Shown: positions 27,340 through 50,592, counted from the stretch's first letter. The stretch is DNA of 64,000 nucleotides from Paracoccaceae bacterium (GCA_965215545.1 OZ244066.1:585358-649357), one strand, 5' to 3'. The notes: a model not told the origin generated them from the sequence alone. Program-made: numbers and translations.

Positions 27340-27349
27340 CCCCCCCCCC
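27340..27349. repeat. C10 homopolymer tract
   Basis: Counted directly. It lies between the ISAs1 right end and a 25-codon methyltransferase-like N-terminal fragment. Confidence 0.95.
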
Positions 27350-27680
27350 AACGTTCTCAACCGCACCATATTATGCAAGGACAATCTCGATGTTCTGCGC
27401 TGTCTGAATTCCGGCTGGATTGACCGCCCCCGTGCCACTCCCCTTCCGTCATGTCGGCACCCGGACCCGCTGGTCGGAGATCGATCGGCGCAATGGCCTC
27501 AAGGACAGTGAATCCGCCAACCCGGCGGAGATCAAATCATCGCTGACTGTGTCCTCCTGCCGCCCCGGTGACGGGGTCTGGAGTCCGGCGTCCATCCCTT
27601 GCCAATCCGGGGCGGGATCCCTATGTCGCAAGGGACACCGCTTGTGGCACGACAACTGAGGGAAAGACGCAGATGGGGGA

Positions 27681-29513
27681 ATGGTCCAGATGACGTTGGA
27701 CCGGGCAGGGCTTGCGGAGTTTGTTGACCGTGACGAAGGCGATGAACCCCCGGTCTTTGTCGGGCGGGATCCGGTCTTTGCCGACATTCTAGCCACGGCC
27801 GACCGGAGTTGGATGGACAGGGATGGAGTGCAGGGTCGCGCGAAGGATACCCGCATCATCCAGGGTGCCCCCGGGGCCGGCAAGAGCACGATCCTCGCCG
27901 AGCTGGCAGCCCGCACCAGGGCCGGCGGCGGGGGGACGGGTAGCATCAGGACCGAGGTCCTCACGCTGAGTTCCGGTCGCATCCGCGGACCCATCGACAT
28001 CCTCGGACCGCTGGCGGCACTGGTCGATGCCGCTGCCGCCAAGGACTTCCTGACCCGCTACCAGACGACCTCCAGCCGCGGTGCCCATCTCGGCGCCTTT
28101 GGGTCATCGATCGGGGTCGAACGGGCCACGACCACAACCTCGTATGCGCCCGAGCCGACCCTGACGGCCTTCCATGATTGGGTCCGCGATTCAACGGGGG
28201 GGCTGCCGGGCCCCATCATCATAGCCATCGACGAGGCCCAGAACATGCGGTTTGGCAATGATGATCCCCGCACCAGCCTCTTGCGGTGCATCCATGAGGC
28301 CGACCCGCCCCTGCCGTTCACTCTTGTGCTCGCCGGCCTCGGCGACACCGACACCCGGGCCACGGACATGGGCCTGACCCGGGGCAAGATGCTCCACACC
28401 ATCGGGGCACTGGACCCGAACGAGGTCACCGATCTCACCCATCGGTGGTGCGGGCACTTCGGCCTGGACCCAACTGGCCATGCGGACGCTCTCGCTGCTC
28501 TTGCCGGTCCCTGTGAGGGGTGGCCGCGCCACCTCCACTTTGCCCTGCAGGCCCTCGGTCGGGACATCCTGCGCACCCAGGACGCAGGACCCGGGGCGCT
28601 CGCCGCGGTGGACTGGGAGCGGGTGGCCACAGCGGCGGCTTTCAGCCGCCTCAACTACTATCGGGGCCAGCAGCGCGGCGCCATGGCAGCGTGCGCCGCC
28701 CTTGTCGGTGCCGTTCTGGACGATCTCGGGGCTGCGGCCGCGCCGTCTCTCCTACGCCGTTCCCATGTCATCAACGGCCTCCATCGCCATACCCTGGCCC
28801 ATCCCGATGCCAGCGCGTGGCAGATCCCCAAGGGCATGGATGCCGACTCCCTGGCCGACCATCTCTTCCACCGTGGTGTCCTGCAGGAGACCCCGGATGG
28901 CTCCCTGACCTGTCCCATCCCCTCCTTTCGCTCCTATCTTGTCAGGGAGGCAGCTCGGGTGGAGGTCGGGACGCTCCTTGCCGGCGACCAGGGCCCGTCG
29001 CCGGTCGACCGGGAGGCTGACCGGATCCTGGCTGCCACCGAGCCTCACACCGAGGACGAGATCGCCCGCTGGACGGCCCTGGCATCCACCTGGCGCCGCC
29101 ACTGTGGGGCCCTGGCGACCATCGCCGGGGATACGGCCTGCCTGGCGACCGTCAAGGGTGCCCCCACCGACACCGATCGGGCCCGAGCCACCACTGTCTT
29201 GGCCACCCTCGATGCCGACGGGACGACCCCGCCCGCAGCTGGGGTCGTCCCGGACCTGCCCCACTCTCTCCCACACGCCGAGCGGGCGGCTGCGGCACTG
29301 GAGGGAATGATCGACACGGTCCGTGATGCGGCGAGGGCCATCCGTGATGGTGAGGCCGATCCCTGGCGCGCCGACACACTCGGCGCGGTCGTGAACCTGC
29401 CTGAAGAGGCGGTGGCGGCCAGCCCGGAGGAGCAGCTCGCATGGGCCCTCGAGCACCTGACCGGGGCACCACCGGAGGCACCGGAAGACTCCAGCCCTTC
29501 GATGGATCCCTGA
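27681..29513 (+). CDS. P-loop AAA ATPase (AAA_22/ExeA/ORC-like), paralogue 2, intact
   Basis: 610 aa. Walker A GAPGAGKST, Walker B IIIAIDEAQ, LVLAGLGDTDTRATDMGLTRGK, CEGWPRHLHFALQALG. About two-thirds aa identity by eye with 4973-6753. Confidence 0.75.
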   Translation: MVQMTLDRAGLAEFVDRDEGDEPPVFVGRDPVFADILATADRSWMDRDGVQGRAKDTRIIQGAPGAGKSTILAELAARTRAGGGGTGSIRTEVLTLSSGRIRGPIDILGPLAALVDAAAAKDFLTRYQTTSSRGAHLGAFGSSIGVERATTTTSYAPEPTLTAFHDWVRDSTGGLPGPIIIAIDEAQNMRFGNDDPRTSLLRCIHEADPPLPFTLVLAGLGDTDTRATDMGLTRGKMLHTIGALDPNEVTDLTHRWCGHFGLDPTGHADALAALAGPCEGWPRHLHFALQALGRDILRTQDAGPGALAAVDWERVATAAAFSRLNYYRGQQRGAMAACAALVGAVLDDLGAAAAPSLLRRSHVINGLHRHTLAHPDASAWQIPKGMDADSLADHLFHRGVLQETPDGSLTCPIPSFRSYLVREAARVEVGTLLAGDQGPSPVDREADRILAATEPHTEDEIARWTALASTWRRHCGALATIAGDTACLATVKGAPTDTDRARATTVLATLDADGTTPPAAGVVPDLPHSLPHAERAAAALEGMIDTVRDAARAIRDGEADPWRADTLGAVVNLPEEAVAASPEEQLAWALEHLTGAPPEAPEDSSPSMDP

Positions 29514-29609
29514 GGCCTTGATGGTCTGAATCCCCGGCCTTTTACATCACTTGTCAGACACCTCTTCCAGTCGGTATCTGTTGCAACGACGCCGATGGTC
29601 AGTTGAACA

Positions 29610-30975
29610 ATGATACACTCTCCGAGTGTATTATTTGGGGCCCGTGCCACCCTGAAGAGTCCATGGGCTTGACGCACCCCGCCTCGGCTGTCTGACAGCC
29701 GGCATGCGGCGCGGTCACGCCGTGTGTGACCTCTCCATTGCCAACCGTCAGGACCGGCGTCAGGACCATGACCACGCCACCATCGCCTCCACCGACCGAG
29801 TCGGGTCTGACCACGGTCTCGATAGCGGCGACCGACACCCTCCCCGGACCCACACCCTGGCCCCGCGCCTTTCAACAGGACACTGCTGACTCGGTGTTTC
29901 TGACGTTGTATTCTCGGCTGCATGAGAATCGGTCTTCGACATTACGCCCACGAGACGGTTGACTGGCTGAAGGCGGGGCTTGCGGCCAGTGACTGCACGC
30001 GCACCTTTCTGGCCCGCGGGCTCTGCGAGCGCGAGGGCTGGCGGAACGCGAAGGGCGAGCTGTGTCTTGCCTCGGCCCGGGCCGCCCTTCCGAAACTGTC
30101 CTCGGCCCCCATCGACCGCTGCCGCCGGCAGCGGTCGATGATGGCGACGCACCACCCCCGGGGCGATGCCGGCTGTCCCGGCGGGCGCCTCCGCGACTGG
30201 ATCCGCTCGCCATCGCACGGCATCCTCGGCGGGTTCACCGTCGGTGCCGCTGCCTGGCACCACAGGGCGCGTGACCGCCACATCGGCTGGTCGCAGGCGG
30301 CGCGGGACGCCAACATCGGGCGCGTGGTCAACAACGACAGGTTCCTTTTGCTGCCGGCCCGAGCGCCGCTCGACTGGCTGCTGCTGACCACCGGGGGCGG
30401 GCCCGACGCGGCGAACGTGCTCCGCGTCGTCACATGGTACGAGAAGCGATGGCTGATCGAGGAATGGTTCGCGGCCCTCAAGGTCGGAACGCGGATCAAG
30501 GACCGCAGGCTCAACGCCGGCGCCGACGGTCGTCCACCCCGACGCGATCCATGTCCTCGCCGTGCACATGGCGAAGCCCAGCCACCGCAGGCAGCGCGGC
30601 CCGGACCAGACGGTCGCGGCGTTCGCGGTCAACACCGCACGCCTCGCCGGCTTCATCCCCTCGACAGGGCAACCCACTCCGGGAACCAGGAAACTCTGGG
30701 AAGGATCCCTGATCCTGTCACTCTTCGTCGAACATCACGGGGCCATGCGCGAATACGCAAACACCGAGTCAACAGTGTTACATTGAAAGGGGCGGGACCC
30801 CCCGGATCCGGGGCCAACACGCAGGGGCTGTCGGCATGGCTCTGGCGACCCTCAGCGGGGGGTCCTGTCTGCAGGCGGTCGGCGGTGCCTGGCCACGCGA
30901 GGGCCCGACAGGTGACCGTCCGCGGGGATGGGACCGGCATCCGGCCCCAATTCCCCCTCTCGATCGCGGCCGCTA
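29610..30975 (+). mobile_element. Defective IS4-family-like element with DUF4338-like N-terminal module and long (about 250-300 bp) imperfect TIRs
   Basis: The core TIR motif GGCCCCGCGCCTTTCAACAGGACACTGCTGACTCGGTGTTT (29859-29899) is matched in inverted orientation at 30759-30799. Weaker similarity extends outward on both sides. Boundaries are +/- 30 bp. Confidence 0.5.
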
Positions 30976-30986
30976 ACTGGGACTAG
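29922..30986 (+). pseudogene. Internally deleted transposase remnant (DUF4338-like N-terminus fused to an IS4 YREK C-terminus)
   Basis: ETVDWLKAGLAASDCTRTFLARGLCEREGW and AAAWHHRARDRHIGW..VVNNDRFLLLP are DUF4338-like. VVTWYEKRWLIEEWFAALKVGTRIKDRRL is the Y-R-E-K signature of IS4/Tn5-type DDE transposases. The DDE core is missing. Confidence 0.55.
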
Positions 30987-31554
30987 CGGCCGTCTGGAAG
31001 CAGGCTTGGGCTTGCTCCCGTTGATTGGGCTGACAGTGCCGCCACCGCCCCCATCCGTCACAACCTCGCCATTCCGTTTCCTCAACTCACCAACAACAAC
31101 CTGCGCCACATATGTCTTCGATGAGACCAGGCTCAGGAATGTTGCGGGACTGGGGATCAGGCCGCGGCGGGTGACCTTCCCCGCGTGCAACCAGACCCCA
31201 TGGACAAGATCGCCGTCGGCGAAGTCGACTCGCCGGGTGTCCTGGGTGCCATCGGGGTATCCGTAACCCCTCACGCTGAAACACAGAGTGGCGTTATTCC
31301 AGGCGCCCGGGTAATCTCCAGTGACATCTGACAAGTTGTTGATACCCGTTGTGGTTATGGGGGTAGCGCCTCGAAACGTGACCCTGTCGTGGGCGACATC
31401 ACTCACAAAGAATAGTGAGAAAGTATCTTTCTCCGCCACGCCGTCCGGGCAGGCCGCTTGTCCAATCGTCTGCGCCTCGGCCTCACCCGCGGGCAGGGCG
31501 AGGCCCAGCGTGAGGGCGACCCAGGGCGGGGGTGAGACCGACCGTCAGGCGGTC
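30852..31554 (-). pseudogene. Secreted-protein paralogue disrupted at both ends
   Basis: Downstream of the IS block the minus strand reads FDRLT.., then the signal-peptide end VALTLGLALPAGEAEAQ, then the ORF AEKDTFSLFFVSD.... It needs a frameshift in a C-run near 31525. Its own start and leader lie 4.75 kb away (36317-36345, ATG mutated to ATA). The 3' end runs into the IS4-like TIR. Confidence 0.45.
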
Positions 31555-31681
31555 AAAAAAAGGGGATTATATACTTGAAAACAAGAAATGAAATTAGCCG
31601 ATAAGAATCAAAATGTTATGCTTTGATCACCACCAATGAGCAAAGATAGCTTATGTCAATGATTATATTGGAGTAATCTAG

Positions 31682-32608
31682 GGCCTGTTGACACTCCCCC
31701 GCTCCGCTGCGATCCTGCCCCCCAACGACCGCCCGGAACGGGCGGCATCCCTTGGCAGGAGCCGACCCATGACCCGCGACCGATCCCGTCTTGCCGACCG
31801 CATGTGGCACCGCATCGAGTCTCTCTGTCCCGGCAAGGTCGGCGACCCCGGCGGCACCGCCGCCGCCAACCGTCTCTTCGTCGAGGCCGTTCTCTGGCCC
31901 GGGATCTGAGTCCCCTGGCGCACCGGTTCGCCCGGGCGTGACCGGCCCGCCCGCTGCGGCCCGACCGCCTGATGCACGGCAGGGGAATTCGGTCTTCCAG
32001 CGCTTCCGCCGCTGGGCTAGGAAGGGTGTCTTCGAACGCATTTTCAGGGCGTTATCGGAGGCGTTCGATCTCGAATACGTCGGCATCGACGGCACCATCG
32101 TCACGGCGCACGCCAGGGCCGCCGGCACCCCATCGGGAGCATGACCGGTGGGGGAACCTGCGATCAGGGGATCGGCCGCCCAGAGGGGCGGTCTGACCAC
32201 CAGGATCGTGGCTGTCACCGATGCCCTTGGTTACCTTGTCCACTTCGTCATCCGGCCCGGTCAGGCCCATGACCCCGGAGGCGGCCAGCGGATGGGGGAC
32301 AGACGCGGTGCTGGCGGGCCTCGATGGCGATGCCCTCATTGCCGACACGGCCTTCGATGCCGACAGCCTCCTTGCCGATCGCGAAGCACGCGGCGTCAAG
32401 GCCGCACTCCCGGCCCAACGCAACCGCACGGCGATTCGGGACCATGATCGGGACATGTCTGCCTGGCGGCACCCGATCGAGACCGTCTTTGCCAAACTCA
32501 AGGCGTTCCGGGGGATGGCGATGCGCTTCGACACGACGCTGACAAGCTTCGCGGCCTTCATTGCCCTGGTGGCCGGGGTGATTGCAGCCCGGTACGTGTC
32601 AACAGGCC
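31682..32608 (+). mobile_element. IS5-family element (IS427/IS1031-like), degenerate
   Basis: Inverted ends are GGCCTGTTGACAC / GTGTCAACAGGCC, flanked by CTAG on both sides. The transposase (MTRDRSRLADRMWHRIESLCPGKVGDPGG..., NSVFQRFRRWARKGVFERIF, ...AFDADSLLADREARGVKA...IETVFAKLKAFRGMAMRFD) is split over three frames and has an internal stop. Confidence 0.7.
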
Positions 32609-32612
32609 CTAG

Positions 32613-33497
32613 GCTGTGTACTTAAATATTGACAGATCTGTCTGGAGCTGCGAGAGGAGCCAAAAAACCATCAGGCAGGAGCAGACCCATGAGCGGACAC
32701 CGCCACGACATGACCGATGCCGAGTGGGCGATCCTCCGCTCGGTGCTTCCCCAGAGACACCAGGGACCCCGCCGGATCCATGACCGAAGGGTCATGGATG
32801 GTATCTTCTTCGTGTTGCGCACCGGCATCCCCTGGCGGGATCTCCCCGAACGCTACGGTCCCCACTCGACCTGTTTCAATCGCTACAACCGCTGGAGCAG
32901 GAACGGCACCTGGGCCCGGATCATGCGGGCCCTGGCCGAGCGGACGGATGGTGATGGAGGCCCGGTCGGACCCGTGCGCCTGCGCATGCTGGACTCCTCC
33001 GTCGTGCGGGCCCACAAGCATGCTGCCGGGGCCCGCCGCGACGGCCCGCCGCCGCCGATCGGCCGGAGCCGTGGCGGTCGGACGACCAAGGTCCATCTCG
33101 CCCTCAGCGGGACGGACGCGGTGCAGGCCCTGGTCCTGACCCCGGGTCAGGCCTCGGACTGTGCCCAGGCCGAGGCGCTGCTTGCCGACCTTCAGCCGGG
33201 GACGACCGTCCTCGGTGACAAGGCCCATGATGCCAATGCTGTCGTCCGGTGCATCGAACGGGCGGGGGGCCAGGCGAACATTCCCTCCCGGTCCTGCCGC
33301 AAGATCCCCCGGCCCTTTGACCGCACCCTGTACAAGGGTCGCAATCGGATCGAGCGGTTCTTCGGCAGGATCAAGGAATTCCGTCGCGTTGCCTCGCGCT
33401 ACGACAAGACCGCCCGCAATTTCCTCTCGGCAATCCAGCTGACGGTCAGTCGCTTCCTGCTGCGGGCTCTGGCGAAGCAATTAAATGGGTACACAGC
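32613..33497 (+). mobile_element. IS5-family element, apparently intact, inserted next to the first at the same CTAG
   Basis: Ends are GCTGTGTAC / GTACACAGC, flanked by CTAG (32609-32612 and 33498-33501). Contains one uninterrupted transposase ORF. Confidence 0.7.
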
Positions 33498-33501
33498 CTA
33501 G
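32689..33501 (+). CDS. IS5-family DDE transposase
   Basis: 270 aa from ATG 32689. MTDAEWAILRSVLPQR...RVMDGIFFVLRTGIPWRDLPERYGP (DUF4096-type N-terminus), LDSSVVRAHKHAAG, VLGDKAHDAN, NRIERFFGRIKEFRRVASRYDK. Confidence 0.85.
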   Translation: MSGHRHDMTDAEWAILRSVLPQRHQGPRRIHDRRVMDGIFFVLRTGIPWRDLPERYGPHSTCFNRYNRWSRNGTWARIMRALAERTDGDGGPVGPVRLRMLDSSVVRAHKHAAGARRDGPPPPIGRSRGGRTTKVHLALSGTDAVQALVLTPGQASDCAQAEALLADLQPGTTVLGDKAHDANAVVRCIERAGGQANIPSRSCRKIPRPFDRTLYKGRNRIERFFGRIKEFRRVASRYDKTARNFLSAIQLTVSRFLLRALAKQLNGYTA

Positions 33502-33781
33502 AAATTACTTTTTCAAGTATATAATCCCCAAAAAAAAAGGGGATTATATACCTAAGTGCCACAGTTTCCGACGGCCCGATCCGCCTGAACTGACCGCCAG
33601 ATCCGTCAGGCATCCTTATCCTCCACGACCCTCACTTGCTGGAATGCTGACCGGATCAGGTCAGCAGGCGAGGTGTCAATGCGGACATCCTTGTCCAGTT
33701 CGGCCTTGCTCGGCTGGTAGTCCGATGGCTTGAGGTGGACAGTGGGGCGGGTTTCGGTTTTCTTGGTCATGGTTTTCCTTC

Positions 33782-35196
33782 TTAGAGCCAGTCACGAATC
33801 CGGTCTTCATGGATTGCCTTGCCATTGTACGGATCCCGCATGGGCGGCATGTGGAGACGCCGATCATCAAAATAGTCTTCGATGGACCAGAGGTTCATGC
33901 GCTTGTAGTCCATGATGCCGATACTGCATGTCCCGGCATTGGTGGCTTCACGGATAGCTTCCTTCGAAGTTACCCTGTCGAGCGTGATGTAACAGCCGAT
34001 GGCGGCGTTGTCCCGCTGGATGACATGCAGGAAGTCGTGCAGGTTGCCAAGATTGAACTTGCCGCCTTTGGCTTGAGCCAACGCCAGATCGGAATCCAGA
34101 TCATCAGGGCGAACTGCCAGTTTCCCGCGGCCGTCCACCCCGCCATCGCCGACCTGCTTGGTGTTGGGGGCAAAGCCGGGAAGGCGGGTGACGGCCCAAC
34201 TTTCGAACTGGAACGGGTTGTCCTTGGCCATCAAGCGAGCCGAATACATATCGACCGGGATGCCCTTGGCTGGGATGCTCATACCCATGCGCTTTTGCCG
34301 AATGAGGTCAATGGCAAAGGCGGAGATGTCGATACCAATGAAACGTCGGTTGAGGTTACGAGCGGATTCAACTGCCGTGCCGCACCCGCAGAAGGGATCC
34401 ATGACAACATCGTTGGGGTTGCTGGAAGCACGAATGATGCGGTCAAGGAGTGCAATGGGCTTTTGGGTGGGGTAGCCGACTCGTTCTTTGGATTGAGAGT
34501 TTATGTATGGAATATCCCATACATCGCGCATATTGACATAATTGAAAACGCCCTTATCGTCTTTAAAAAATTCGGCATTTCCTGCTCCATAATTTATGAT
34601 CCCTGGCTTGCGGCTTTTGCTTTTTGTGTAGGCTTTTTCTTTCAGAACATTGAAACATGAATTTGGACCTTTTCCATAAAACAGAATGACATCGTGTTTC
34701 TTGGAAAAATGATTTTTGCCCGCCCCTCCTGTCCGATAATGCCAAATGACTTCATTCCTGAATCCCCCCCCCCCTGCTTGACAATAATTTCGTCCATCAA
34801 GGCTTTCAGGTAGTGTGAGGCTGTCGGGTCGCAGTGCAGGTAGATGGAGCCGGTGGGTTTCATGAGGCGGTGCATCTCTGCCAATCTCTCGGCCATGTAG
34901 GTGAGATAGCCAAGCATACCGCACTCGCCCAGCATGGTATGCAGACCAAGAATGGCGCGATGAGCTGGGTGAGCGATGGCATCCAGCCGGTTGGCCGCTG
35001 CATCATCCCAGACCCATGTGTCGTTGAAGGCGCGGTACTGGGCGTCGATACCCCCGCTTTTGCCAAACAGGACATTGTACTGCGCCTTGGAGTTGAAGGG
35101 CGGGTCGAGATAGATCAGGTCGATGCTCTGATCATCCCAATGTTGCATCCAGTCCAGACAATCTCCGTAGTAGAGTGTGTCCAGGTCGGGACTCAT
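33782..35196 (-). pseudogene. N6/N4 DNA methyltransferase with a C-terminal Mrr-like nuclease-fold domain; out of frame at a G11 tract (phase-OFF)
   Basis: N-terminal ORF: LYYGDCLDWMQHWDDQSIDLIYLDPPFNS (motif IV DPPF). C-terminal ORF: FRNEVIWHYRTGG..., VVMDPFCGCGTAVESA (motif I), GDGGVDGRGKL...LAQAKGG (Mrr-like). The two frames meet at the G11 run (34764-34774). 12 or 9 G would restore ...KQGGGGFRNEV.... The ATG at 35196 overlaps the transposase stop (ATGA). Confidence 0.8.
34764..34774 (-). repeat. G11 (coding-strand) homopolymer tract inside the methyltransferase gene
   Basis: Counted directly (C11 on the plus strand). It is the exact point of the frame change. Confidence 0.95.
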
Positions 35197-36179
35197 GCAG
35201 CGCACTCCTGCGCTCCGCTGTCGAGGCCATTGTCGGCCTTCAGGGCTGCATAGGTCAGCCGCTTGCCCTGCATGCGCTCGACGGTCAGTTCCAGTTGCTG
35301 GATCGTATCGCCCTCGCGCATGTTATGACGGCCAGCGAACTCGTTGATGTAGCGTTGCAGGTGCTTGGGACTCATCTTGTGATAGGTGCCCTTGTAGCCG
35401 CGCTTGAACATCGACCAGAAGGACTCGATGCCGTTGGTGTGGACAAGACCCTTCACATATTCCCCCGATGAATGCTTGACCGACTCGTGATGGAAGCCCT
35501 CGATGCCCTGATAACCCTTGTGGTCGTCGGTGTACAAGTCGGAACCCGGGGCGACTGTCTCGGCCACAAAGCCTTGCAGGGTTGCCTTGTCGGTGCTCTC
35601 GACCGTCCGGGCCACGACCGCATTGGTCTCCCGATCCTTGACCCCGGCAACGATTTCCTTGCCGACTGCCCCGCGTCCGGTCATGTCATCCCGCTTCGAC
35701 TTCGGCATGTTCTTGCGCTTGCCACCCATGTAGGTCTCATCGGCCTCGGCCGGGCCGGTGAAGAGGGGAAGTCCCGCCTCATAGGTCTTGCGGAGGCGGT
35801 GGGCCAGATGCCAGGCCGATTTCTGGGTGATCTCCAAATCCCGATGCAGTTTCATCGAACTGACGCCCTTGAGACTGGTGGTGACCAGATAGGCAGCGAT
35901 GGCCCATGTCTGGTATCCGAGTTTGCTGGACTGCATGACCGTGCCGGTCTTGACGCTGAACCGGGGCTTGTCGGCACAGTCCCGGCAACGATGGGTCATG
36001 CTGTGATGCTTGATGTTGCACTGGACATTGTCCGATCCGCAGTGGGGGCACCGGGGACCATCCGGCCAGACAATCGACTCGATCCATGTGCGGGCAGTTT
36101 CGTCATCGGGGAACATCCTGAACAACCTGGGCAGGCTGATCGTCTTGCGGTAGTGCTTGCCGGGGGCTTCGTGGGCCAT
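35193..36179 (-). CDS. IS1595-family transposase
   Basis: Start at ATG 36179 (RBS AAGGAG). N-terminal zinc ribbon WPDGPRCPHCGSDNV...HRCRDC. DDE-type core ..EADETYMGGK...LYTDDHKGY...HTNGIESFWSMFKRGYKGTYHKMSPKHLQRYINEF. Confidence 0.85.
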   Translation of the reverse strand: MAHEAPGKHYRKTISLPRLFRMFPDDETARTWIESIVWPDGPRCPHCGSDNVQCNIKHHSMTHRCRDCADKPRFSVKTGTVMQSSKLGYQTWAIAAYLVTTSLKGVSSMKLHRDLEITQKSAWHLAHRLRKTYEAGLPLFTGPAEADETYMGGKRKNMPKSKRDDMTGRGAVGKEIVAGVKDRETNAVVARTVESTDKATLQGFVAETVAPGSDLYTDDHKGYQGIEGFHHESVKHSSGEYVKGLVHTNGIESFWSMFKRGYKGTYHKMSPKHLQRYINEFAGRHNMREGDTIQQLELTVERMQGKRLTYAALKADNGLDSGAQECAA

Positions 36180-36316
36180 GGTCAGTCTCCTTGTTGCGAG
36201 TCTGATATATGGCACTTTGCTGTAAATTTCAAGGGGTCAATGGCACCTTTCTCTATTTTTCCCGGCCGCCGGGCCGGAACAAGGCTGGCACTTAGGTATA
36301 TAATCCCCAAAAAAAA

Positions 36317-36447
36317 GGGGGGGGGGGCAGTGTCAAGCGGGTTATGGTCTCTCTCCGGGTTGGGTGGCCACCCGGTGGCACGCAACGGCCACCGGGTGGA
36401 TCATCATGCTGGGACGGCGATAGCACGAGCGGGGGCCGGCTGGCAAG
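36317..36447 (-). repeat. Leader cassette copy 1 (orphaned by the IS insertion): G11 tract + start region + 5'-UTR hairpin
   Basis: 131 nt, near-identical to 37326-37457 (about 6 differences by eye). The start codon is mutated to ATA. Hairpin at 36368-36399. Confidence 0.85.
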
Positions 36448-36812
36448 AGCGGAATCCCGCCCGCATCCGCCGCTAGGGCTGAGTGTCCGCGCCCGCCGTG
36501 CCGCTGCGGGGGCAGTCGGTGTCAGCCAGGCGGCGGTCCCTTGACCCCGTGCCGCTGTCGACGATCGCCTGGCGCCGGGGTGCGCGCGTCGGTCACCAGT
36601 GTCCCCCTGTCGATCGTGCGACCCCCTGTGATGGCCCTGTCGTCGGCTGTCATGGTTCGCTGCCCTGGCGGGGCGGCCCATCGGGGGCAACATGTGCCTG
36701 GCTGGCGCCGGCGTGCGACGAGATCGGCACGGATTGGCAGTGGGCGGGCCAGCAAATGGCCGCAATTCGATGACGACGGGAGACCCGCTTGCAGTGGCCA
36801 CCGCCCCCCGGA

Positions 36813-37355
36813 TCAGTCGTTATCCCGGATGGGAATGCGCAGATGACGGGTCGGGTTGCGCATGATGACGTGGATGGCATTCTCCCCTGTGTCCCGGACA
36901 CTGTTCTCGCGGGGGGTCAGCAGGCCAGACGTAAAGCCTTCGGCCTCGGTCATGGTGTTGCACCGCTTGAACGCGCCGGCAGCCTGCCAGCGGTCGCCCT
37001 GAAGGCCGCTGGCCCCGGCAACATTGTTGGGCAGGCAGTTGGTCGCGCTGGCATCGCACGGGGTGGTGTCGAAAATTTCGGCGCAGAAGGGAATCCGGTA
37101 CTCCCGGGGTGTCTCGAAACTGCCGAAGTTGTCGCAGTTTTCCAGGATGAACTGGATGATCACACCGCCATCAGTACCTTCTGTTGCCGGCGTGCCCGCC
37201 ATCGGGAAGCCCTGGTATAACTTGATATGGGAGGCATTGCACTGTTCGGCCAGCGCCGGGCCGGTCGGCAGGGCCAGGAACAGGGTGACAGCCAGGGCGA
37301 CCGCGAGGGCCGTCAGGCGGTCAAAGGGGGGGGGGGGCAGTGTCAAGCGGGTCAT
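36813..37355 (-). CDS. Cys-rich secreted protein with a poly-Pro (C12-encoded) signal-peptide N-region
   Basis: ATG at 37355 preceded by GGAGAGAG. MTRLTLPPPPFDRLTALAVALAVTLFLALPTGPALA|EQC is a signal peptide. The mature part has 7 Cys. The longer 36813-37604 ORF has no support upstream of this ATG. Confidence 0.6.
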   Translation of the reverse strand: MTRLTLPPPPFDRLTALAVALAVTLFLALPTGPALAEQCNASHIKLYQGFPMAGTPATEGTDGGVIIQFILENCDNFGSFETPREYRIPFCAEIFDTTPCDASATNCLPNNVAGASGLQGDRWQAAGAFKRCNTMTEAEGFTSGLLTPRENSVRDTGENAIHVIMRNPTRHLRIPIRDND

Positions 37356-37457
37356 GGTCTCTCTCCGGTTTGTGTGGCCACCCGGCGGCAAGCAACGGCC
37401 ACCGGGTGGATCATCATGCTGGGACGGCGATAGCACGAGCGGGGGCCGGCTGGCAAG
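37326..37457 (-). repeat. Leader cassette copy 2 (functional): G12 tract + start codon + 5'-UTR hairpin
   Basis: Direct repeat of 36317-36447. G12 at 37326-37337 encodes PPPP in frame. Hairpin at 37378-37409. Confidence 0.85.
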
Positions 37458-41085: not shown

Positions 41086-41117
41086 GAATCCCCTTTCAAT
41101 TCGCCAGTGCCGGGGTG

Positions 41118-42602: not shown

Positions 42603-43405
42603 CCGGTCCTCTTGCCAAGGCGCGGAATCGAGGCCAGAAGCCTTTGCGTATAGGCGTGCTGCGGTGCCTCGAAAATCTGCCGCTTCATTCCGGTTTCGAC
42701 AAGTTTTCCCCCATACATGACTGCGACCCGGTCACTGATGTGGCGGACTGCACCGAGATCGTGACTGATGAACAGCATCGACATGCCGCAGTCACGCTGG
42801 AGCTTCTTTAGCAGGTTGAGAACCTGGGCCTGGATGGAAACATCAAGCGCCGAGACCGGCTCGTCGGCAATGACGAGACGCGGAGTCAGGATCATGACTC
42901 TGGCAATACCGATACGCTGTCGCTGACCGCCGGAGAATTCGTGCGGGTAGCGTTTCATCGAGTCCGCCTCCATCCCCACACGTTCAAGCGTTGCAGCGAT
43001 CCTCGCGCGCGCTGCCGGTCGGTTACGCACAAGTCCATGAATGAAAAGCGGTTCGGCCAGCATCTGCTCGATGCTGAGACGTGGATTGAGTGAGGCAAAT
43101 GGATCCTGAAAAATCATCTGGATATCCCGCCGCAACGGCCGGAATGCGGCCGGCGACAGGGTCAGGATATCCCGCCCGTCGAACAGTGCCGTTCCAGCCG
43201 TGGCCGCTTCCAGATGGGTCAAGGTCCGTCCGACCGTGGACTTGCCACAGCCACTCTCGCCGACCAGGCTGAGAACTTCGCCATTGTGGATGGTGAATGA
43301 AACGCCATCAACGGCCCTGAGCACAGACGTCCTGCGCATGAACCCACCCCGTCCGACACGGAAATGTGTCTTCAGCGCGTGCACTTCCAGCAGGGGATGG
43401 GTCAT
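42599..43405 (-). CDS. Peptide ABC transporter ATP-binding protein (DppF/OppF-like)
   Basis: Walker A GESGCGKST, signature FSGGQRQRIGIA, Walker B LVIADEPVSALD. The start at 43405 gives an ATGA overlap with the upstream gene. Confidence 0.9.
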   Translation of the reverse strand: MTHPLLEVHALKTHFRVGRGGFMRRTSVLRAVDGVSFTIHNGEVLSLVGESGCGKSTVGRTLTHLEAATAGTALFDGRDILTLSPAAFRPLRRDIQMIFQDPFASLNPRLSIEQMLAEPLFIHGLVRNRPAARARIAATLERVGMEADSMKRYPHEFSGGQRQRIGIARVMILTPRLVIADEPVSALDVSIQAQVLNLLKKLQRDCGMSMLFISHDLGAVRHISDRVAVMYGGKLVETGMKRQIFEAPQHAYTQRLLASIPRLGKRTG

Positions 43406-44376
43406 GGTGACGATCCTTGCGGAAAATGACAACGGACGACGTGGGAGGGTGCAACGGCCACAACGTCTGGATCTGTTGTCATGCAGGTTCCCTTTGCCGC
43501 AAAGCAGCGTGGGTGAAAGGCGCAGCCGGGCACTGTTTCGTCCAGCGTCGGCACCCGACCGGGAATGGCATCAAGCCATTCAACATCGCGATCGAGGGCT
43601 GGAATCGAGCCGAGCAGCCCCAACGTGTATGGGTGGCACATGTCTGAAATGAGTGCCGAGGTCGACGCCTGTTCGACTATCCTGCCGCGGTACATGACAG
43701 CAACCGTGTCACACATCTCGGCAACCACCCCCAGGTCATGCGAGATCAGGATGACGGACATGCCGGTCCGTGACTGCAGGTTGCGGATGAGTTCCAGCAC
43801 GTCTTTCTGTACGGTGACGTCCAGTGCCGTTGTCGGCTCGTCGGCAATCAGGAGCTGTGGATCGCAGGCAAGCGCCATCGCGATCATGACCCTTTGCCTC
43901 TGTCCGCCGGACAGCTGGTGCGGAAAACTGTCGATTCGGTGCTTCGGGTCGGGAATGTGCACGAGTTCCAGCAGTTCCAGCACACGTTCCCGCACCTGCC
44001 TTCTGGTCATGCTGCGATGCTGCAGAAGGGCTTCCCGGATCTGGTCACCGACCCGATAGACAGGATTCAGGCTGGTCATCGGTTCCTGAAATATCATGGC
44101 CATCCGCGCGCCCATCACCCGCCGCCGCTCGTCGGGAGAAAGCGCCAGGAGGTCCTGGCCCTGGAATCGAATTGACCCTCCGACAATCCGCACTGGCGAA
44201 CCTTCGAGCAACCCCATGATTGCCAATGCGGTCAGACTCTTGCCGCACCCGCTCTCACCGACGATGCCCAGCGTTTCATTTTCCTCGACGGCAAGTGACG
44301 CCCCTTGCACCACTGGCAGGAATTCGCCGCCCCGGGCGATGCTCAGTTCCAGGTGTCTTATGTCAAGCAAGGCCAT
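43402..44376 (-). CDS. Peptide ABC transporter ATP-binding protein (DppD/OppD-like)
   Basis: Walker A GESGCGKSLT, LSGGQRQRVMIAMAL, LLIADEPTTALD. Has the C-terminal oligopeptide-type extension (CAFHPRC). Confidence 0.9.
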   Translation of the reverse strand: MALLDIRHLELSIARGGEFLPVVQGASLAVEENETLGIVGESGCGKSLTALAIMGLLEGSPVRIVGGSIRFQGQDLLALSPDERRRVMGARMAMIFQEPMTSLNPVYRVGDQIREALLQHRSMTRRQVRERVLELLELVHIPDPKHRIDSFPHQLSGGQRQRVMIAMALACDPQLLIADEPTTALDVTVQKDVLELIRNLQSRTGMSVILISHDLGVVAEMCDTVAVMYRGRIVEQASTSALISDMCHPYTLGLLGSIPALDRDVEWLDAIPGRVPTLDETVPGCAFHPRCFAAKGTCMTTDPDVVAVAPSHVVRCHFPQGSSP

Positions 44377-44379
44377 TGT

Positions 44380-45231
44380 TCAGACCCCCGCAATGTCGCC
44401 CTTGAACCGAGGATCGATGGTGTCACGCAACGCGTCCCCGACAAGGTTCATCGAAAAGACCGAAAGGATGATCAGCGCACCGGGAAAGATCAGCAGCCAC
44501 GGTGCGCGCGTCACATAGATCCGTTCCTCGCTCAACATGTTTCCCCAGCTCGGAACTTCCGGTGGAAGGCCAAGTCCAAGGAAGTCCAGCGCTGCGGCCT
44601 GCAATTGTGCGAAGGCAAAGATGAAACTCGCCTGCACCAGCATGGGGGACATGAGATTCGGCAAGATATGACGGAACAGGATCGACATGTGCCCCGCGCC
44701 GGAACAGATTGCGGCATCCACAAAGACATCACCCTTCAACTTCAGGGTCATGCCAAACACGATCCGGGCCGTTGTCATGGCGTAGACAATGCCAATGACG
44801 ATGATCGTGTTCAGCACGCTGCGCTCGAGGAGCGTCATCAGAACCAGCGCCAGAAGCAATGCCGGGAACGCCATCAGCACATCCACGACTCGCATCAGCA
44901 AATGGCCCAGACGGGCAAAATGGGCGGAAAGCATGCCGATCAGACCGCCAGCAGTCAGGGCGATCAGCACACTGCCCGACCCAATCAGAATCGCCATGCG
45001 CGCACCGTATATGGCCCGGGAAAGCGAATCCCGACCAAAATGATCGGTTCCGAAGAGATGGGGCCAACCGGGTTCGGAAAGGCGAACGAGCGGGTCGAAT
45101 TCCAGCGGGTCGAATGGTGCCAGAAGCGGTGCCCAGAGCGCCGCAATGCCGACGATCAGCAGCCAGCACGCACCGATCATGGCAAGCACGCGACCACGAA
45201 AGACCGGCGCGATTGAAAGAACCGTGCTCAT
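44380..45231 (-). CDS. Peptide ABC transporter permease (DppC/OppC-like)
   Basis: 283 aa, multi-TM. The GTDHFGRDSLSRAIYGAR motif is typical of DppC-type permeases. Confidence 0.9.
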   Translation of the reverse strand: MSTVLSIAPVFRGRVLAMIGACWLLIVGIAALWAPLLAPFDPLEFDPLVRLSEPGWPHLFGTDHFGRDSLSRAIYGARMAILIGSGSVLIALTAGGLIGMLSAHFARLGHLLMRVVDVLMAFPALLLALVLMTLLERSVLNTIIVIGIVYAMTTARIVFGMTLKLKGDVFVDAAICSGAGHMSILFRHILPNLMSPMLVQASFIFAFAQLQAAALDFLGLGLPPEVPSWGNMLSEERIYVTRAPWLLIFPGALIILSVFSMNLVGDALRDTIDPRFKGDIAGV

Positions 45232-46175
45232 TGCAGCGACACTCTCGGATCCAGACTCGCATAGGCAAGGTCCACCAGGAGATTGATGACCATGTAGAAG
45301 ACCACAATGATCAGTATGACGCCCTGGATCACCGGATAATCGCGCCGCAGGATGGATTCCACCACAAGCCGTCCGATGCCAGGCAGGGAAAAGACGGTTT
45401 CGGTCACCACCGCTTCGCTGACCAGTGTCGCGAAAGTGAAGCCGAAAGCCGCGGCAACGGCAATGAGCGCATTGCGGAAGATGTGCCTGATGGTCACCCG
45501 GGCCGGGTGCAGGCCCTTGGCTCTGGCCGTGCGCACATGGTCTTCCCGCGCGACATCAAGCATGGAGGCGCGTATCAGGCGGATGATGAGAGCTGCGTTG
45601 GGTGCCGCCAGGGTCAGGCTGGGCAGAACGAGGTAGCGCAGGTTCGCTGCTCCACCCTCATCGGCTAGCGACGGAAATCCAGAAGAGGGGAACCAGCCCA
45701 GCCCGACCGAGAAGATCAGGATCAGATAGAGCCCCAGCCAGAACGTCGGCACCGAAGCAAACAACATGGCTCCACCAGAGGTCACCTGATCGACCCATGA
45801 TCCGTGACGCATGGCGGCAATGATGCCAACCGGAACCCCGAACACGACAATCCAGAACATGGTCATTGTCGCCAGGAGGATCGAGGTTTCGGCACCGTCG
45901 GCGATGACCGAAAGAACAGGTTCATGAAAGAAGACTGATGTCCCGAGATCGCCCTGCAGGACATTGCCGAGCCACAGAACATACTGCGTCCAAAGCGGTT
46001 CATCCAGACCGAGCGCGCGAGAGAGTTCGGCAACGTCCTCCGGTGTTGCCGTGTCACCCAGAAGGATCGAGGCCGGATCGCCGGGGATCAAGTGAATGAA
46101 CATGAAGACCAGAAACGAGGCGGCCAACAGTGTGGGGACAAGCGTCAGGGCTCTGTTCAAGGCATAGATCAACAT
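45228..46175 (-). CDS. Peptide ABC transporter permease (DppB/OppB-like)
   Basis: 315 aa. IHLIPGDPA and EDHVRTARAKGL (EAA-loop region). Confidence 0.9.
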   Translation of the reverse strand: MLIYALNRALTLVPTLLAASFLVFMFIHLIPGDPASILLGDTATPEDVAELSRALGLDEPLWTQYVLWLGNVLQGDLGTSVFFHEPVLSVIADGAETSILLATMTMFWIVVFGVPVGIIAAMRHGSWVDQVTSGGAMLFASVPTFWLGLYLILIFSVGLGWFPSSGFPSLADEGGAANLRYLVLPSLTLAAPNAALIIRLIRASMLDVAREDHVRTARAKGLHPARVTIRHIFRNALIAVAAAFGFTFATLVSEAVVTETVFSLPGIGRLVVESILRRDYPVIQGVILIIVVFYMVINLLVDLAYASLDPRVSLQ

Positions 46176-46201
46176 GAAACGGCCCGATGAGAGCGGAAAT
46201 C

Positions 46202-46232
46202 GGCCTCCCCGCCTTTCAACGGCGGGGAGGCC
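46202..46232 (-). promoter_or_regulatory. Intercistronic 12-bp GC stem-loop between the binding-protein and permease genes
   Basis: GGCCTCCCCGCC-tttcaac-GGCGGGGAGGCC is a perfect palindrome arm pair. There is no clear U-tract. The position is typical of mRNA-stabilising or attenuating hairpins after ABC binding-protein genes. Confidence 0.5.
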
Positions 46233-46245
46233 GAAGGATTATCAC

Positions 46246-47787
46246 TTATTTTGAAACGTTCCAGAAGTGTGGCCAGATCAGGGTCGCCTCACCGAGGCCT
46301 GCCAGATCAGGCGATGCGATATTGTAGGTATAGACATCACCCGTCTTCATTGTCGGGACCTGCTCGTAGATCAACGCCTGGATCTCGGTCCAGATCGCCT
46401 GACGTTCGGCTGGATCCGAGCTCTCGGTGAACTGCGCCTTCAGGGCGTTTATCTCCTTTGTTGCCCACCAACCGGGATAGCTGTCATTCATGACCGAGAT
46501 CAGGATCGGGTCGGGCACAAAACCATGATGGGTGAAGAACATGTCCCACTGGTCCGGCTGGGCCCGCTTTTCAATCAGGGTGGCCCAGTCATAGACCTGG
46601 AGGTCGATGTTGAATCCGGCCTGTGCCAGCTGCCGGGTGTAGACAATCGCGGTATCGTAGTGGAACGGGTAGTTCGTCGAGACCATGAACTTGATCGGCT
46701 CACCGCCATATCCGGCATCTTCGGCCATGGTGCGGGCGGCATCCGCATCGCCCATGCTGAAGTGCTCGGTGCCGGCTTCCGTGAACCACACGTTGCCCTC
46801 GGGCAGGAACGAACCATTCGCACGCCACAGTCCCTCTGGACCAATGGCCACGTGCAGTGCGGGAACCTTGTCCAGTGCCGTCTGGATCGCGCGCCGCAGG
46901 CCAAAGTTGTCCTGAAGCGGGCCATCCTTGGAATTCATGAACACCAGGCCGAAGATCGGTCCACCGTTCAGGATCGTGACAACCGAGGGATCGGCCTCGA
47001 GGTCGGCGTAGAGATCACCGGGAATGCTCTCGGCATAGTCATAGTCACCGGCCTTCAGGCCAGCCACACGCGTCCCGACGTCAGGAACCGGGATGAACCG
47101 CAGCGCGTCGAATTCGGCCACGCGTGCCCCTCCATAGCCATCTGCCTCGCCTTCAGGCGAGACATAGCCGTCGAACCTCACCAACTCCACATGGCGGTTT
47201 GGTACCCACTCGCTGAACATGTAGGGCCCTGTTCCAACGTAGTTGTCGGGCGCAATCGGCTCCTTGCCAGCGTCTTCGGCAACCGAGGCCGGGTAGATTG
47301 CTGGCCCGCCGTTGATAAAGGCCAGCAGGTTCTTCCAGGGGCCAAAGGGCTGGACAAGCCTGATCGTGATCTCGTGGTCCCCTGTCGCTGTCACGTCCTC
47401 GACATTCGCGAACAGAAGTCCGCCCCGCGACCCGAATTCCCCCCATCGGTTCAGCGACGCGACGACATCCGCTGCTGTCATGTCCTGACCGTTGTGGAAT
47501 TTCACACCGTCCCGGAGCATGATCGTGATCGTCTTCCCATCATCCGAGACTGCCTCGCCGGCGGCGAGCAGGCCAACGGGAGAATTCGAGGCATCGAATG
47601 TGTAGAGTCCCTCGAAGATGTGATGGGCAATCGTGGTTGACAGATCGGACGTGAGAACCTGCTGGTCAAGACTCGGTGGCTCGCCAACGGTCGCATACCG
47701 TAATGTCCCGGCCGCAAGTGCTGCACCGGCAAGCATGGTGCATGCACCCAAGGCAATCGCCGAGCGCAACAGCATTCTACAGTTCAT
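46246..47787 (-). CDS. Peptide/nickel ABC substrate-binding protein (family 5, DppA-like)
   Basis: Start at ATG 47787 (RBS GAGAGGAG). Signal peptide MNCRMLLRSAIALGACTMLAGAALA. Family-5 pattern LRYATVGEPPSLD. Confidence 0.9.
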   Translation of the reverse strand: MNCRMLLRSAIALGACTMLAGAALAAGTLRYATVGEPPSLDQQVLTSDLSTTIAHHIFEGLYTFDASNSPVGLLAAGEAVSDDGKTITIMLRDGVKFHNGQDMTAADVVASLNRWGEFGSRGGLLFANVEDVTATGDHEITIRLVQPFGPWKNLLAFINGGPAIYPASVAEDAGKEPIAPDNYVGTGPYMFSEWVPNRHVELVRFDGYVSPEGEADGYGGARVAEFDALRFIPVPDVGTRVAGLKAGDYDYAESIPGDLYADLEADPSVVTILNGGPIFGLVFMNSKDGPLQDNFGLRRAIQTALDKVPALHVAIGPEGLWRANGSFLPEGNVWFTEAGTEHFSMGDADAARTMAEDAGYGGEPIKFMVSTNYPFHYDTAIVYTRQLAQAGFNIDLQVYDWATLIEKRAQPDQWDMFFTHHGFVPDPILISVMNDSYPGWWATKEINALKAQFTESSDPAERQAIWTEIQALIYEQVPTMKTGDVYTYNIASPDLAGLGEATLIWPHFWNVSK

Positions 47788-48269
47788 GGTCATCTCCTCT
47801 CTCAATGGTTCCATGTGAAAGATCAATTCTGTAAGTTCATTATATTTTGCTTCCAAAACCATCAAGTGAGTTGGATGAATTTCTTTGATATGCAGAAAAA
47901 GAATTCATTTAGTTACTATCAATATTATACTTTTAATCATTATATCATTTATCAAGCAATTCTAGATTACGATACTTACTTTCATATTGGTTACTTCAGG
48001 GTGATCCACGATCCGTCATGATCATGGACCGGGCGGACCCCAAACGGTGCTTCACTGCGAGGTGCAGGCCCCGAAACGGGCATTGGGTCGTGTCTCAGTC
48101 GGAAATGATCTCTTCCTTCCGACCGCCAACCCTGCTGCAGACCGAGAGCCCCACAGCATCCGGAGCCTTGACAGTGATGCCCCGTCAACGACCAAAGACA
48201 TCCTCATGACCCGTTGCCACCCTGACCCTCACTGCCGCGCTGGCCACCCTTGTTGCGTCGGTGACAATA

Positions 48270-48287
48270 TCACCCGTTTTCGGGTGA
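48270..48287 (-). terminator. Possible rho-independent terminator of the 48320-48934 gene
   Basis: On the minus strand: TCACCCG-aaaa-CGGGTGA followed by UAUUGU. The stem is short (7 bp) and the U-tract weak. Confidence 0.35.
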
Positions 48288-48319
48288 CGCTCACGACCCC
48301 GGGATCGGCAGCTGTGTCA

Positions 48320-48934
48320 CTACTGGGTCGACCCGTCGGTCTCGCCCCACTCGTCGAGTGTCGCACAGCCCTTGCCGCCGGTAAACAGGAAGTGGGCGCT
48401 GCCGGCGACACCGTGATTCGATCCTGGATTCAGCCGAAAGTCCTGCACCACCAGCTCACCGGGGCTGCGCTGGATATTGCTGAGATTGCGATTGCTCCAG
48501 ATTTGGGCACCAGCCTTGGGGCGGACCTCGATGAGGTTCGCGCCGAGCACGCCGCCGGCAAAGCCAATTCGATTGGCAGCGGGGTCCTGCCACTGGTTTC
48601 TGTTCGAAGCCGTGGCGCGCCACTCCCGGTTGGAGAATGCCGTCGCCCGGAGATCGCTGGTTGCCTGAATCCAATAGCCAGAGATCTGAAAGCTCGCCCG
48701 CATCACGCTGGGATCGGTGCTCGAGAAGATGATCTTCATGCGGCCGAGCGTGGCGGCCCCACCGTAGCCGTCCACGACCTGGCCGCCGTTGACTGATGCC
48801 ATCCGGACAGTGCATTTGTTGCGGTCGCAGGTAGCCTGGGCGTGCGCCTCACCCGCGGGCAGGGTCAGTGTGAGGGCCAGCAGGGCGGTGGCCAGAAGGG
48901 TCAGGGGGGGGGGCGGGTGGATCAAGTGTCGCAT
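48320..48934 (-). CDS. Secreted protein with a poly-Pro (C10-encoded) signal-peptide N-region
   Basis: RBS GGAGGA. MRHLIHPPPPLTLLATALLALTLTLPAGEAHA|QATC is a signal peptide. The leader style matches the 37355 gene, but the mature part is unrelated. Confidence 0.55.
   Translation of the reverse strand: MRHLIHPPPPLTLLATALLALTLTLPAGEAHAQATCDRNKCTVRMASVNGGQVVDGYGGAATLGRMKIIFSSTDPSVMRASFQISGYWIQATSDLRATAFSNREWRATASNRNQWQDPAANRIGFAGGVLGANLIEVRPKAGAQIWSNRNLSNIQRSPGELVVQDFRLNPGSNHGVAGSAHFLFTGGKGCATLDEWGETDGSTQ
48904..48913 (-). repeat. G10 tract (plus strand) inside codons 7-10 of the 48934 gene
   Basis: Counted directly. Encodes P-P-P-P in frame. Confidence 0.95.
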
Positions 48935-48976
48935 GGAGAATCCTCCAGATCAAGCTGTGGCTGCTCCCTTCTATCA

Positions 48977-48986
48977 GGGGGGGGGG
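48977..48986 (-). repeat. Second G10 tract, 43-52 nt upstream of the 48934 start codon
   Basis: Counted directly. The local context TCA-G10-CGGG duplicates that of the intragenic tract. Confidence 0.95.
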
Positions 48987-50380: not shown

Positions 50381-50592
50381 CCCCGCTGCTTGACTCGTGC
50401 ATCACCTCAGCTGCCAGCATGGAAAGCAATTCATGTGACAGTTGGCACGACCCGGATTGTCAGGGACCGGGCCGCCCTGGTTTGCCCTTCCACAACCGGC
50501 AAGGATGGTGCCGAGCCTGGTGGCGGGGCATCGGTCGCACACCAGCACCCGGACGCAGCCCGGGGCACTGCCGACCGGGCCTGGACAGGGAC

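Follow-up and report, generated by a model that had tools for sequence, protein, structure and literature searches.

Long G/C homopolymers of a marine Paracoccaceae genome as probable contingency loci of secreted-protein and restriction-modification genes

Textbooks describe contingency loci for a few pathogens of humans and animals. The present analysis concerns six G/C homopolymers of 10–12 nt in a 64,000-nt stretch of the genome of an uncultured marine Paracoccaceae bacterium (G000; single contig C1, 3,134,200 bp, 61.7% G+C). The whole stretch, G000:C1:585358-649357, is referred to as the window, and positions without a prefix are counted from its first letter. The six tracts very probably belong to simple-sequence contingency loci distributed over the whole genome, a ‘phasome’ of ~100 on/off switches.

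Among the closest described systems, pilC of Neisseria has a poly-G tract in the part encoding the signal peptide and opa has CTCTT repeats in its leader; the gene copies switch independently. Reviews of the subject include PMC5320596 and PMC5084427. Homopolymers in promoter spacers are represented by poly-C of Bordetella pertussis fim2/fim3 and poly-G of Neisseria meningitidis porA/opc. About 30 tracts are present in Campylobacter jejuni, compared with about 100 here. The poly-G phasome of C. jejuni comprises dozens of G/C homopolymers of ~9–12 nt in genes of surface structures and restriction-modification (PhasomeIt, PMC6321876). Phasevarions are represented by the phase-variable mod/DNA methyltransferase genes of Haemophilus, Neisseria and Helicobacter (PMC5149525), and simple-sequence repeat contingency loci of the mammal pathogen Bartonella are backed by experimental evolution (PMC11466379).

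Similar to Neisseria pilC and opa, the repeats of G000 are located in the predicted cleaved leader of multi-copy families of surface or secreted proteins, where a 1-unit change would switch translation and leave the mature protein unaltered. The Neisseria genes belong to a human mucosal pathogen, whereas in the marine bacterium ~40 genes of several unrelated, unnamed families are involved, always with poly-C read as poly-Pro, and the families are common to other classes and phyla. The C. jejuni phasome shares with G000 a bimodal distribution of run lengths and a genome without canonical MutS/MutL repair; however, C. jejuni is AT-rich, so that G runs stand out trivially, while G000 has 62% G+C and is nevertheless depleted in 7–8-mers, and its tract genes encode small secreted proteins of predicted beta-sandwich type in place of glycosylation genes. 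As in fim2/fim3 and porA/opc, the run at 48977 lies between -35-like and -10-like hexamers, which are 17 nt apart in paralogues, but the promoter is putative and its C10 spacer of 21 nt is far from optimal. The likeness to phasevarions consists in a methyltransferase ORF (open reading frame) with a hypermutable repeat, present in two copies four repeat bases apart, one intact and one frameshifted; here, however, a beta-class N6/N4 methyltransferase is fused to an Mrr-type nuclease domain and is carried by an IS1595-type transposon. Bartonella is likewise an animal-associated alphaproteobacterium with simple-sequence repeats in surface-protein genes, although repeat types and genes differ.

Number and placement of long G/C runs

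The whole-genome census proposed in the earlier note was carried out against order-3 and order-5 Markov simulations of the complete 3.13-Mb genome; an order-7 null was discarded because the model learns the tracts themselves. With 109 G/C runs of at least 9 nt, compared with ~23 (order-3) or ~13 (order-5) expected, and 71 runs of at least 10 nt, compared with ~5 or ~2, slip-prone tracts are present in excess of oligomer composition. The length spectrum is bimodal, with 1134 runs of 6 nt, 89 of 7, 21 of 8, 38 of 9, 36 of 10, 24 of 11, 7 of 12 and 4 of 13–15, i.e., with a trough at 7–8 and a second peak at 9–11. Runs of 7 and 8 nt are scarce relative to the simulations (about 260–295 and 52–69, respectively). 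Long runs are over-represented 5–30 times and intermediate runs depleted three-fold; the longest A/T run of the genome is 9.

The six tracts of the window are exactly those counted in the earlier note (Table 1; the G11 occupies 36317-36327), and its observation by eye that housekeeping genes contain nothing longer than 7 agrees with a scan of the 64 kb, in which the remaining runs of at least 7 are G7 at 16948, G7 at 28196 and C7 at 62704. For runs of at least 10, the two Markov models predict about 0.05–0.1 per 64-kb window, so chance is inadequate to explain six. With a genome mean of ~1.45 such runs per 64 kb, the window is also locally enriched about four-fold.

Genes were predicted by a rough codon-usage gene caller (2,481 genes, 77% of the genome), and every tract was checked on both strands. 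The enrichment in 5' coding regions that the earlier note proposed to test was found: 40 of the 109 tracts are located 9–27 nt (mode 18) past an ATG, in signal-peptide codons. Each of these ATGs is preceded by a GGAGGA-type ribosome-binding site, and the tract, in all 40 genes C on the coding strand and read as poly-Pro, is followed by [RK]-L-T-x-L…, a hydrophobic core and A-x-A in an ORF of 160–260 codons. In the assembly, 16 leader tracts are in frame and 24 are out of frame. Although 41% of Pro codons are CCC, just 6 of 170 internal poly-Pro runs consist of CCC throughout, and the purity of the tracts is therefore a DNA-level feature with no protein requirement.

Another 11 tracts lie within called genes. 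Two of these genes are copies of the methyltransferase-Mrr fusion; the others, by motif reading and not by systematic annotation, include an ORF resembling a methyltransferase (DPPY motif), one resembling a transposase, and unassignable ORFs. Where a product is readable, the in-gene tracts are, judging by these motifs, in mobile-element or defence-type genes. For the other 58 tracts, coding signal was never found on both sides of a run on one strand; they mark the beginning of ORFs, precede ORFs or occupy non-coding or decayed DNA, and the ORFs starting directly behind a tract include those of an EcoO109I-type restriction endonuclease and a Calx-beta protein.

The tracts are thus located where a 1-unit change would alter expression (5' coding regions, ORF starts, upstream regions), and the genes bearing them include those of signal-peptide proteins, methyltransferase-Mrr, the EcoO109I-type endonuclease and the Calx-beta protein as well as transposase-linked ORFs. 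Random placement that includes essential genes was not seen, as none of the 109 tracts interrupts a recognisable housekeeping gene. Excess, bimodality and non-random placement support the view of the earlier note that restriction to accessory genes argues against a neutral consequence of high GC. Its proposal of selection for hypermutable switches is upheld as regards census and placement; selection itself is suggested by placement and conservation, and the switching phenotype is putative.

The genes mutS and mutL are absent from the genome, in which domain search gave no MutS_V, MutL_C or DNA_mis_repair match and tblastn with MutS of a congener returned P-loop noise only. Both genes are kept in 12 of 13 congeners (G131 is the other congener without MutS_V) and in five other tract-rich metagenome-assembled genomes (MAGs); accordingly, the loss is lineage-specific and not the cause of the pattern, and mismatch-repair loss as a general correlate of tracts was rejected. 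Here, it may raise switching rates. Together with 62% G+C, the absence of mutS and mutL is also the starting point of a neutral explanation, by which runs arise, drift and survive in dispensable genes and intergenic DNA. Purifying selection alone could keep tracts out of recognisable core genes, and the ON/OFF ratio is near random. Drift, however, does not explain 40 tracts at one exact place behind the ATG, always with C on the coding strand, nor the trough and second peak of the length spectrum, while MAGs with mutS and mutL carry 44–167 runs and have the same tract position in homologous genes. A purely neutral by-product is therefore quite unlikely.

Occurrence in other genomes and length variation

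The protein P0001 (204 aa), one of the two intact tract-bearing secreted proteins of the window, has just 45 relatives among 5.8 billion clustered proteins, all of them unnamed and without a Pfam domain. When one genome per species was scanned, 117 loci encoding the P0001 family were found, all in MAG records of one accession series. The taxa named for these records, some of them after sponges, are Paracoccaceae, Arenicellales, Ca. Poriferihabitaceae/Poriferihabitans, Pseudomonadales, Pseudohongiella, Ca. Azotimanducus/Azophilus, Rhodospirillales, unclassified Alpha- and Gammaproteobacteria and Bryobacterales (Acidobacteriota). Among the 80 retained loci on which run position was assessed, a C-run of 8–28 on the coding strand lies within ~120 nt of the match start in 63, and in five more a coding-strand C-run (up to 29) lies slightly further upstream, making 68 of 80 in total. 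No member turned up in 120 sampled Paracoccaceae genera or among JGI metagenome contigs. In a tree of 91 sequences, well-supported short-branch subclades mix Rhodobacterales, Arenicellales, Pseudomonadales and other Gammaproteobacteria, and 39 label changes are needed compared with a minimum of 7, which indicates horizontal transfer. The second secreted protein, P0046, has 28 homologues in these MAGs, with identities of up to 87% and, in most cases, a PPP leader.

The five tract-rich MAGs, which are among those with the P0001 family, hold 52, 107, 167, 44 and 48 runs of at least 9, while most sampled Paracoccaceae have few C10 matches. In G123, the Arenicellales MAG with 167 such runs, which carries the P0001-family locus L008, merely 8 runs of exactly 7 are present.

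Contig names of the relatives (ctg…x_c / …x_l) resemble what we take to be metaMDBG naming. In the literature, the names of the MAG taxa led to a single sponge genome note, which names Ca. Poriferihabitaceae and the metagenome of which was obtained from PacBio HiFi reads with metaMDBG (PMC12859430). For these two reasons, sponge association of the Paracoccaceae genome is likely.

Duplicates of tract loci differ in run length. Three duplicate pairs with no mismatches in 288–400 nt of flank have tracts of 15/11, 11/12 and 8/9, and copies 96–97% identical have 10/11, 9/11 and 9/10. The two copies of the 2.77-kb IS1595-type transposon, one of which lies in the window, are distinguished by three substitutions and four C's. 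Among paralogues sharing one and the same 30-nt leader, the tract has 13, 17, 18, 20 and 21 C's in a Pseudomonadales MAG and 9, 13, 13, 13, 16 and 18 C's in a Bryobacterales MAG.

These differences bear on an explanation by control at the RNA or protein level, namely transcriptional slippage or ribosomal frameshifting (leaky OFF), or EF-P-dependent stalling at poly-Pro. PPP-type motifs stall ribosomes without EF-P, and homopolymers promote RNA polymerase slippage; in-frame tracts encode PPP-PPPP or longer, and tracts of up to 29 in other MAGs correspond to 9 or more prolines. Nevertheless, identical duplicates differ at the DNA level, and 24 of the 40 genes are out of frame, so that no poly-Pro is made. 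Such control complements DNA switching more than it excludes it, and in place of switching it is unlikely. Furthermore, homopolymers are the main class of long-read errors, and several other Paracoccaceae assemblies have poly-C at contig ends, which would fit a sequencing or assembly artefact, with the runs absent from the DNA of the organism. This is hardly conceivable for repeated, codon-precise positions with conserved flanks within one 3.13-Mb contig, where homologous genes of unrelated taxa, assembled independently, also have the run in the same position; only exact length is doubtful.

Comparison with other genomes at the P0001 locus showed no DNA match over window positions 46200-50400 in the sampled same-genus genome G079. 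Among 13 congeners, the flanking oppA-like and rpiR-like genes have just 70–78% DNA identity, local G+C is 40–54%, and the tract is absent at the spot. Five other MAGs match the secreted gene only, never its flanks. Composition within the genus is heterogeneous: core genes of L096-L102 are 68–78% identical to those of the window, with 40–54% G+C compared with 62%.

Secreted-protein genes and mobile elements of the window

The placement stated in the earlier note, with tracts at 5' ends of secreted-protein genes, inside a methyltransferase and ahead of a methyltransferase-like fragment, was borne out tract by tract; the tracts at 37326 and 48904 lie inside signal-peptide codons of intact genes (Table 1).

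Table 1. Homopolymer tracts of the window and the features associated with them
Feature	Coordinates	Strand	Description
C10 tract	27340..27349	+	Precedes short DNA-methyltransferase-like fragment (…ALITPPPNVLNRTILCKDNLDVLRCLNSG…), stop ~60 codons on
Decayed body of split secreted paralogue	30850..31554	-	Starts …DRLTVGL…, then frameshifts and stops
First inserted element	31562..33529	.	Inverted ends GGGGATTATATACTT; IS5-type transposase at 32689-33501(+)
IS1595-type transposon	33539..36308	-	Inverted ends, 8-bp AT-rich target duplications
C11 tract (coding-strand G11)	34764..34774	-	Inside methyltransferase-Mrr gene, out of frame
Orphaned promoter-leader cassette, G11 (coding-strand C11)	36317..36447	-	Third paralogue, ATG mutated to ATA
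Secreted-protein gene P0046, 180 aa	36813..37355	-	MTRLTL-PPPP-FDRLTALAVALAV…ALA/EQC; intact, in frame (ON) with 12 C's
G12 tract (coding-strand C12)	37326..37337	-	Signal-peptide codons 7-10 of MTRLTLPPPPFDRLTALAV…, 18 nt past ATG
Secreted-protein gene P0001, 204 aa	48320..48934	-	MRHLIH-PPPP-LTLLATALLALTL…AHA/QATC; intact, in frame (ON) with 10 C's
G10 tract (coding-strand C10)	48904..48913	-	Signal-peptide codons 8-10 of MRHLIHPPPPLTLLATALL…, 21 nt past ATG
G10 tract (gene-strand C10)	48977..48986	-	43-52 nt upstream of P0001-gene ATG

The first C of the tract at 48904 closes the preceding CCG proline codon. The mature part of P0001 comprises an all-beta domain (~170 aa, 4 conserved Cys); AlphaFold2 on an alignment of 33 sequences gave an all-beta model (predicted local distance difference test, pLDDT, 76.5), for which a Foldseek search of the PDB returned just generic immunoglobulin-like/beta-sandwich matches with a template-modelling (TM) score of about 0.3. 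For P0046, no Pfam or NCBIfam match was obtained, and a search of nine secreted families against both databases gave none. We infer that P0001-type proteins may represent a secreted or surface binding module. Secreted proteins without detectable overall similarity have common short Cys motifs (…DDNCRN…; …CF-x-TGG…C-x-C…), e.g., at G000:C1:382327, 1394952, 2152318 and 2969968, a hint that small Cys-rich secreted domains form a wider superfamily. Neither secreted gene of the window is flanked by terminal inverted repeats of a convincing kind, and the idea that these genes are mobile cassettes was dropped for lack of them.

Upstream of the P0001 gene, the tract at 48977 is located between the -35-like TTGCCG (48995-49000) and the -10-like TAGAAG (48968-48973). 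At this place, two tract-free paralogues read CCCCTTGCCGGCTGCCCG-CATAT-CTGATAGGAT, and in the window gene the C-run replaces CATAT, which changes the spacing from 17 nt to 21 nt. Similar TTGCCT-N17/18-TAGAGT/TAGAAT blocks are found ahead of many tract genes. The run at 48977 is considered a putative promoter-spacer element.

Ahead of ~15 tract genes, a shared promoter-like block was observed, TTGAAATTTTCTCTTGCC-N-GGCAAG…TAGAGT/TAGAAT…GGAGGA, with a small palindrome (CTTGCC/GGCAAG) between the hexamers; examples are at G000:C1:363231, 2152233, 2349356, 2669108, 2929227 and 3085345. It may be a common operator of these genes. The leader cassettes at 36348-36447 and 37356-37457 share a conserved inverted repeat (ccacccggtggc…gccaccgggtgg) in the 5' leader, immediately ahead of the ribosome-binding site, and the same hairpin is present ahead of several unrelated tract genes (G000:C1:70348, 456425, 1308179 and 2986174).

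The orphaned leader at 36317 and the leader of the gene at 36813-37355 have 96% identity over 120 nt, and the flank gaccgtcaggcggtc of the split paralogue is identical to that of the intact copy at 37311-37325. Two insertions into a T8 run adjoining the C-run separated the 36317 leader from the body at 30850-31554. Elements with GGGGATTATATAC ends have 8-bp AT-rich target duplications (window sites 31555-31561, 33530-33538 and 36309-36316), and they landed twice in T8 directly behind poly-C: in C11-T8 in the window and in C9-T8 at G000:C1:91289-91305. Composite C(n)T(6-7) tracts are also present in an Aestuariivita MAG (L040, L064 and L069).

The IS1595-type transposon (Pfam matches PF12762, PF12760, PF01555 and PF04471) encodes a transposase (35193-36215) and, as a passenger, the N6/N4 methyltransferase-Mrr fusion (33782-35205; PF01555 and PF04471). 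A second copy of the transposon contains a G15 tract in frame and an intact methyltransferase-Mrr of 472 aa, i.e., tract length sets the frame of a methyltransferase ORF (G11 out, G15 in), and the gene at 34764 is a candidate phasevarion. The same backbone is present at G000:C1:511631-514404 and 870464-873332, with transposases 99.7–100% identical; its cargo is either methyltransferase-Mrr with an internal tract (two copies) or the EcoO109I-type restriction endonuclease with C10 at its 5' end. Elements of this type look like mobile tract-controlled restriction or modification genes.

The tract at 27340 lies just downstream of ISAs1-type transposase fragments (26189-27245). The methyltransferase likeness of the fragment behind it is a reading of the N-terminal motif, with no Pfam matches; because an intact start codon was not found in that frame, the fragment is probably a pseudogene remnant.

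An IS4-family element with ends CAATGGCATTAACTTA, encoding a 724-aa transposase with DruA/DUF4338 and DDE_Tnp_1 domains, is present in three copies (G000:C1:504470-507775, 1109513-1111936 and 1392527-1394950), bordered at both ends by G/C runs (C14/C9, G10/G8 and C8/C11, respectively). The element appears to insert into tracts and to duplicate them. A DruA-domain ORF was also found in the window, at 29922-30986.

Each genome has leaders of its own, whereas mature domains are shared across phyla. In G000, 26 tract pairs have at least 60 nt of leader up to the run in common but not the body, and 20 pairs have the body in common but not the leader. The G000 leader MTRLTL-P(n) is used for several families, and all copies of the Pseudomonadales MAG (L003, L005, L023, L038 and L058) begin with MFSLKVQCDV-P(n), its P0046-family member having the near-identical MLNLKVQCDV-P(n).

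Both the exchange of leaders and bodies and the three flanked IS4-family copies would be expected if the run were primarily a recombination or insertion joint between resident promoter-leader cassettes and incoming mature-domain genes, or a landing site of insertion sequences, with switching being secondary. A joint has no need of 9 or more bases or of a pure homopolymer, however, and the tracts of methyltransferase, restriction-enzyme and promoter lack the leader/body structure; this explanation, which is compatible with contingency loci, is very unlikely to replace them. It is conceivable, if rather doubtful, that the poly-C run serves as the standard joint of a modular system extending across the host-associated, probably sponge, community, in which genome-owned promoter-leader-poly-C cassettes receive mobile mature-domain genes plugged in behind them, and mobile elements (the IS4-family DruA/DUF4338 element and the IS1595-type transposons with tract-controlled restriction/modification genes) land at runs and duplicate them.

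Proposed switching mechanism and its significance

By the contingency-locus explanation, which takes slippage at the run as the simplest mechanism, G/C runs of at least 9 would gain or lose bases by slipped-strand mispairing at replication, uncorrected without MutS/MutL, and the changes would be reversible. The run would be read as CCC (poly-Pro) in the N-region of the cleaved signal peptide, and because of this location in-frame length changes should be harmless: a 3-base change would leave the mature protein unaffected, while a 1-base change would put the start codon out of frame with the remainder of the gene, turning it OFF. Poly-Pro may additionally render translation EF-P-dependent. The length of the run at 48977 would set the transcription strength of the gene at 48320-48934, and the run at 34764 would switch the transposon-borne methyltransferase-Mrr, predicted to be OFF in the window and ON in the second copy; those at 36317 and 27340 would be relics on broken genes. 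The population would be a mosaic of cells displaying differing subsets of roughly 40–50 small secreted/surface proteins and differing restriction-modification states. We infer that the benefit may lie in protection from phages, or from recognition or phagocytosis by the probable sponge host.

Several points weigh against this explanation. Absent mismatch repair is in part a neutral source of unstable runs, and the secreted proteins of tract genes are without any known function. A simple sigma-70 consensus scan calls no promoter at 48977 or in a tract-free paralogue and thus gives the putative promoter-spacer role no support. Evidence of length variation comes from within-genome duplicates and from paralogues of other MAGs, and no close relative was found for a locus-by-locus comparison of tracts. 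The sequence of G000 was probably assembled from long metagenome reads, and of all calls in such an assembly the length of homopolymers is the least dependable; individual ON/OFF states may be off by 1. Finally, the ON fraction (16 of 40) is near the random one third; hence, the states themselves show no selection.

The proposed mechanism is classical throughout, while its setting in an uncultured marine Paracoccaceae is new, as are the scale (~100 tracts at 62% G+C) and the cross-phylum sharing of switch position and unnamed families. A full-text literature search found no description of this pattern and no paper tying contingency loci to sponge symbionts. Few attempts have been made to find such loci in environmental or mutualistic bacteria, as homopolymers of this kind interrupt short-read MAGs. 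In practice, genes that are switched off may be taken for ‘frameshifted pseudogenes’ in long-read MAGs. The ~100 switches and their recurrence in MAGs of Alphaproteobacteria, Gammaproteobacteria and Acidobacteriota point to stochastic surface variation as a general adaptation to life in a filter-feeding, phagocytic and phage-rich host, and the tract genes are candidates for the long-debated means by which symbionts escape being eaten or lysed.

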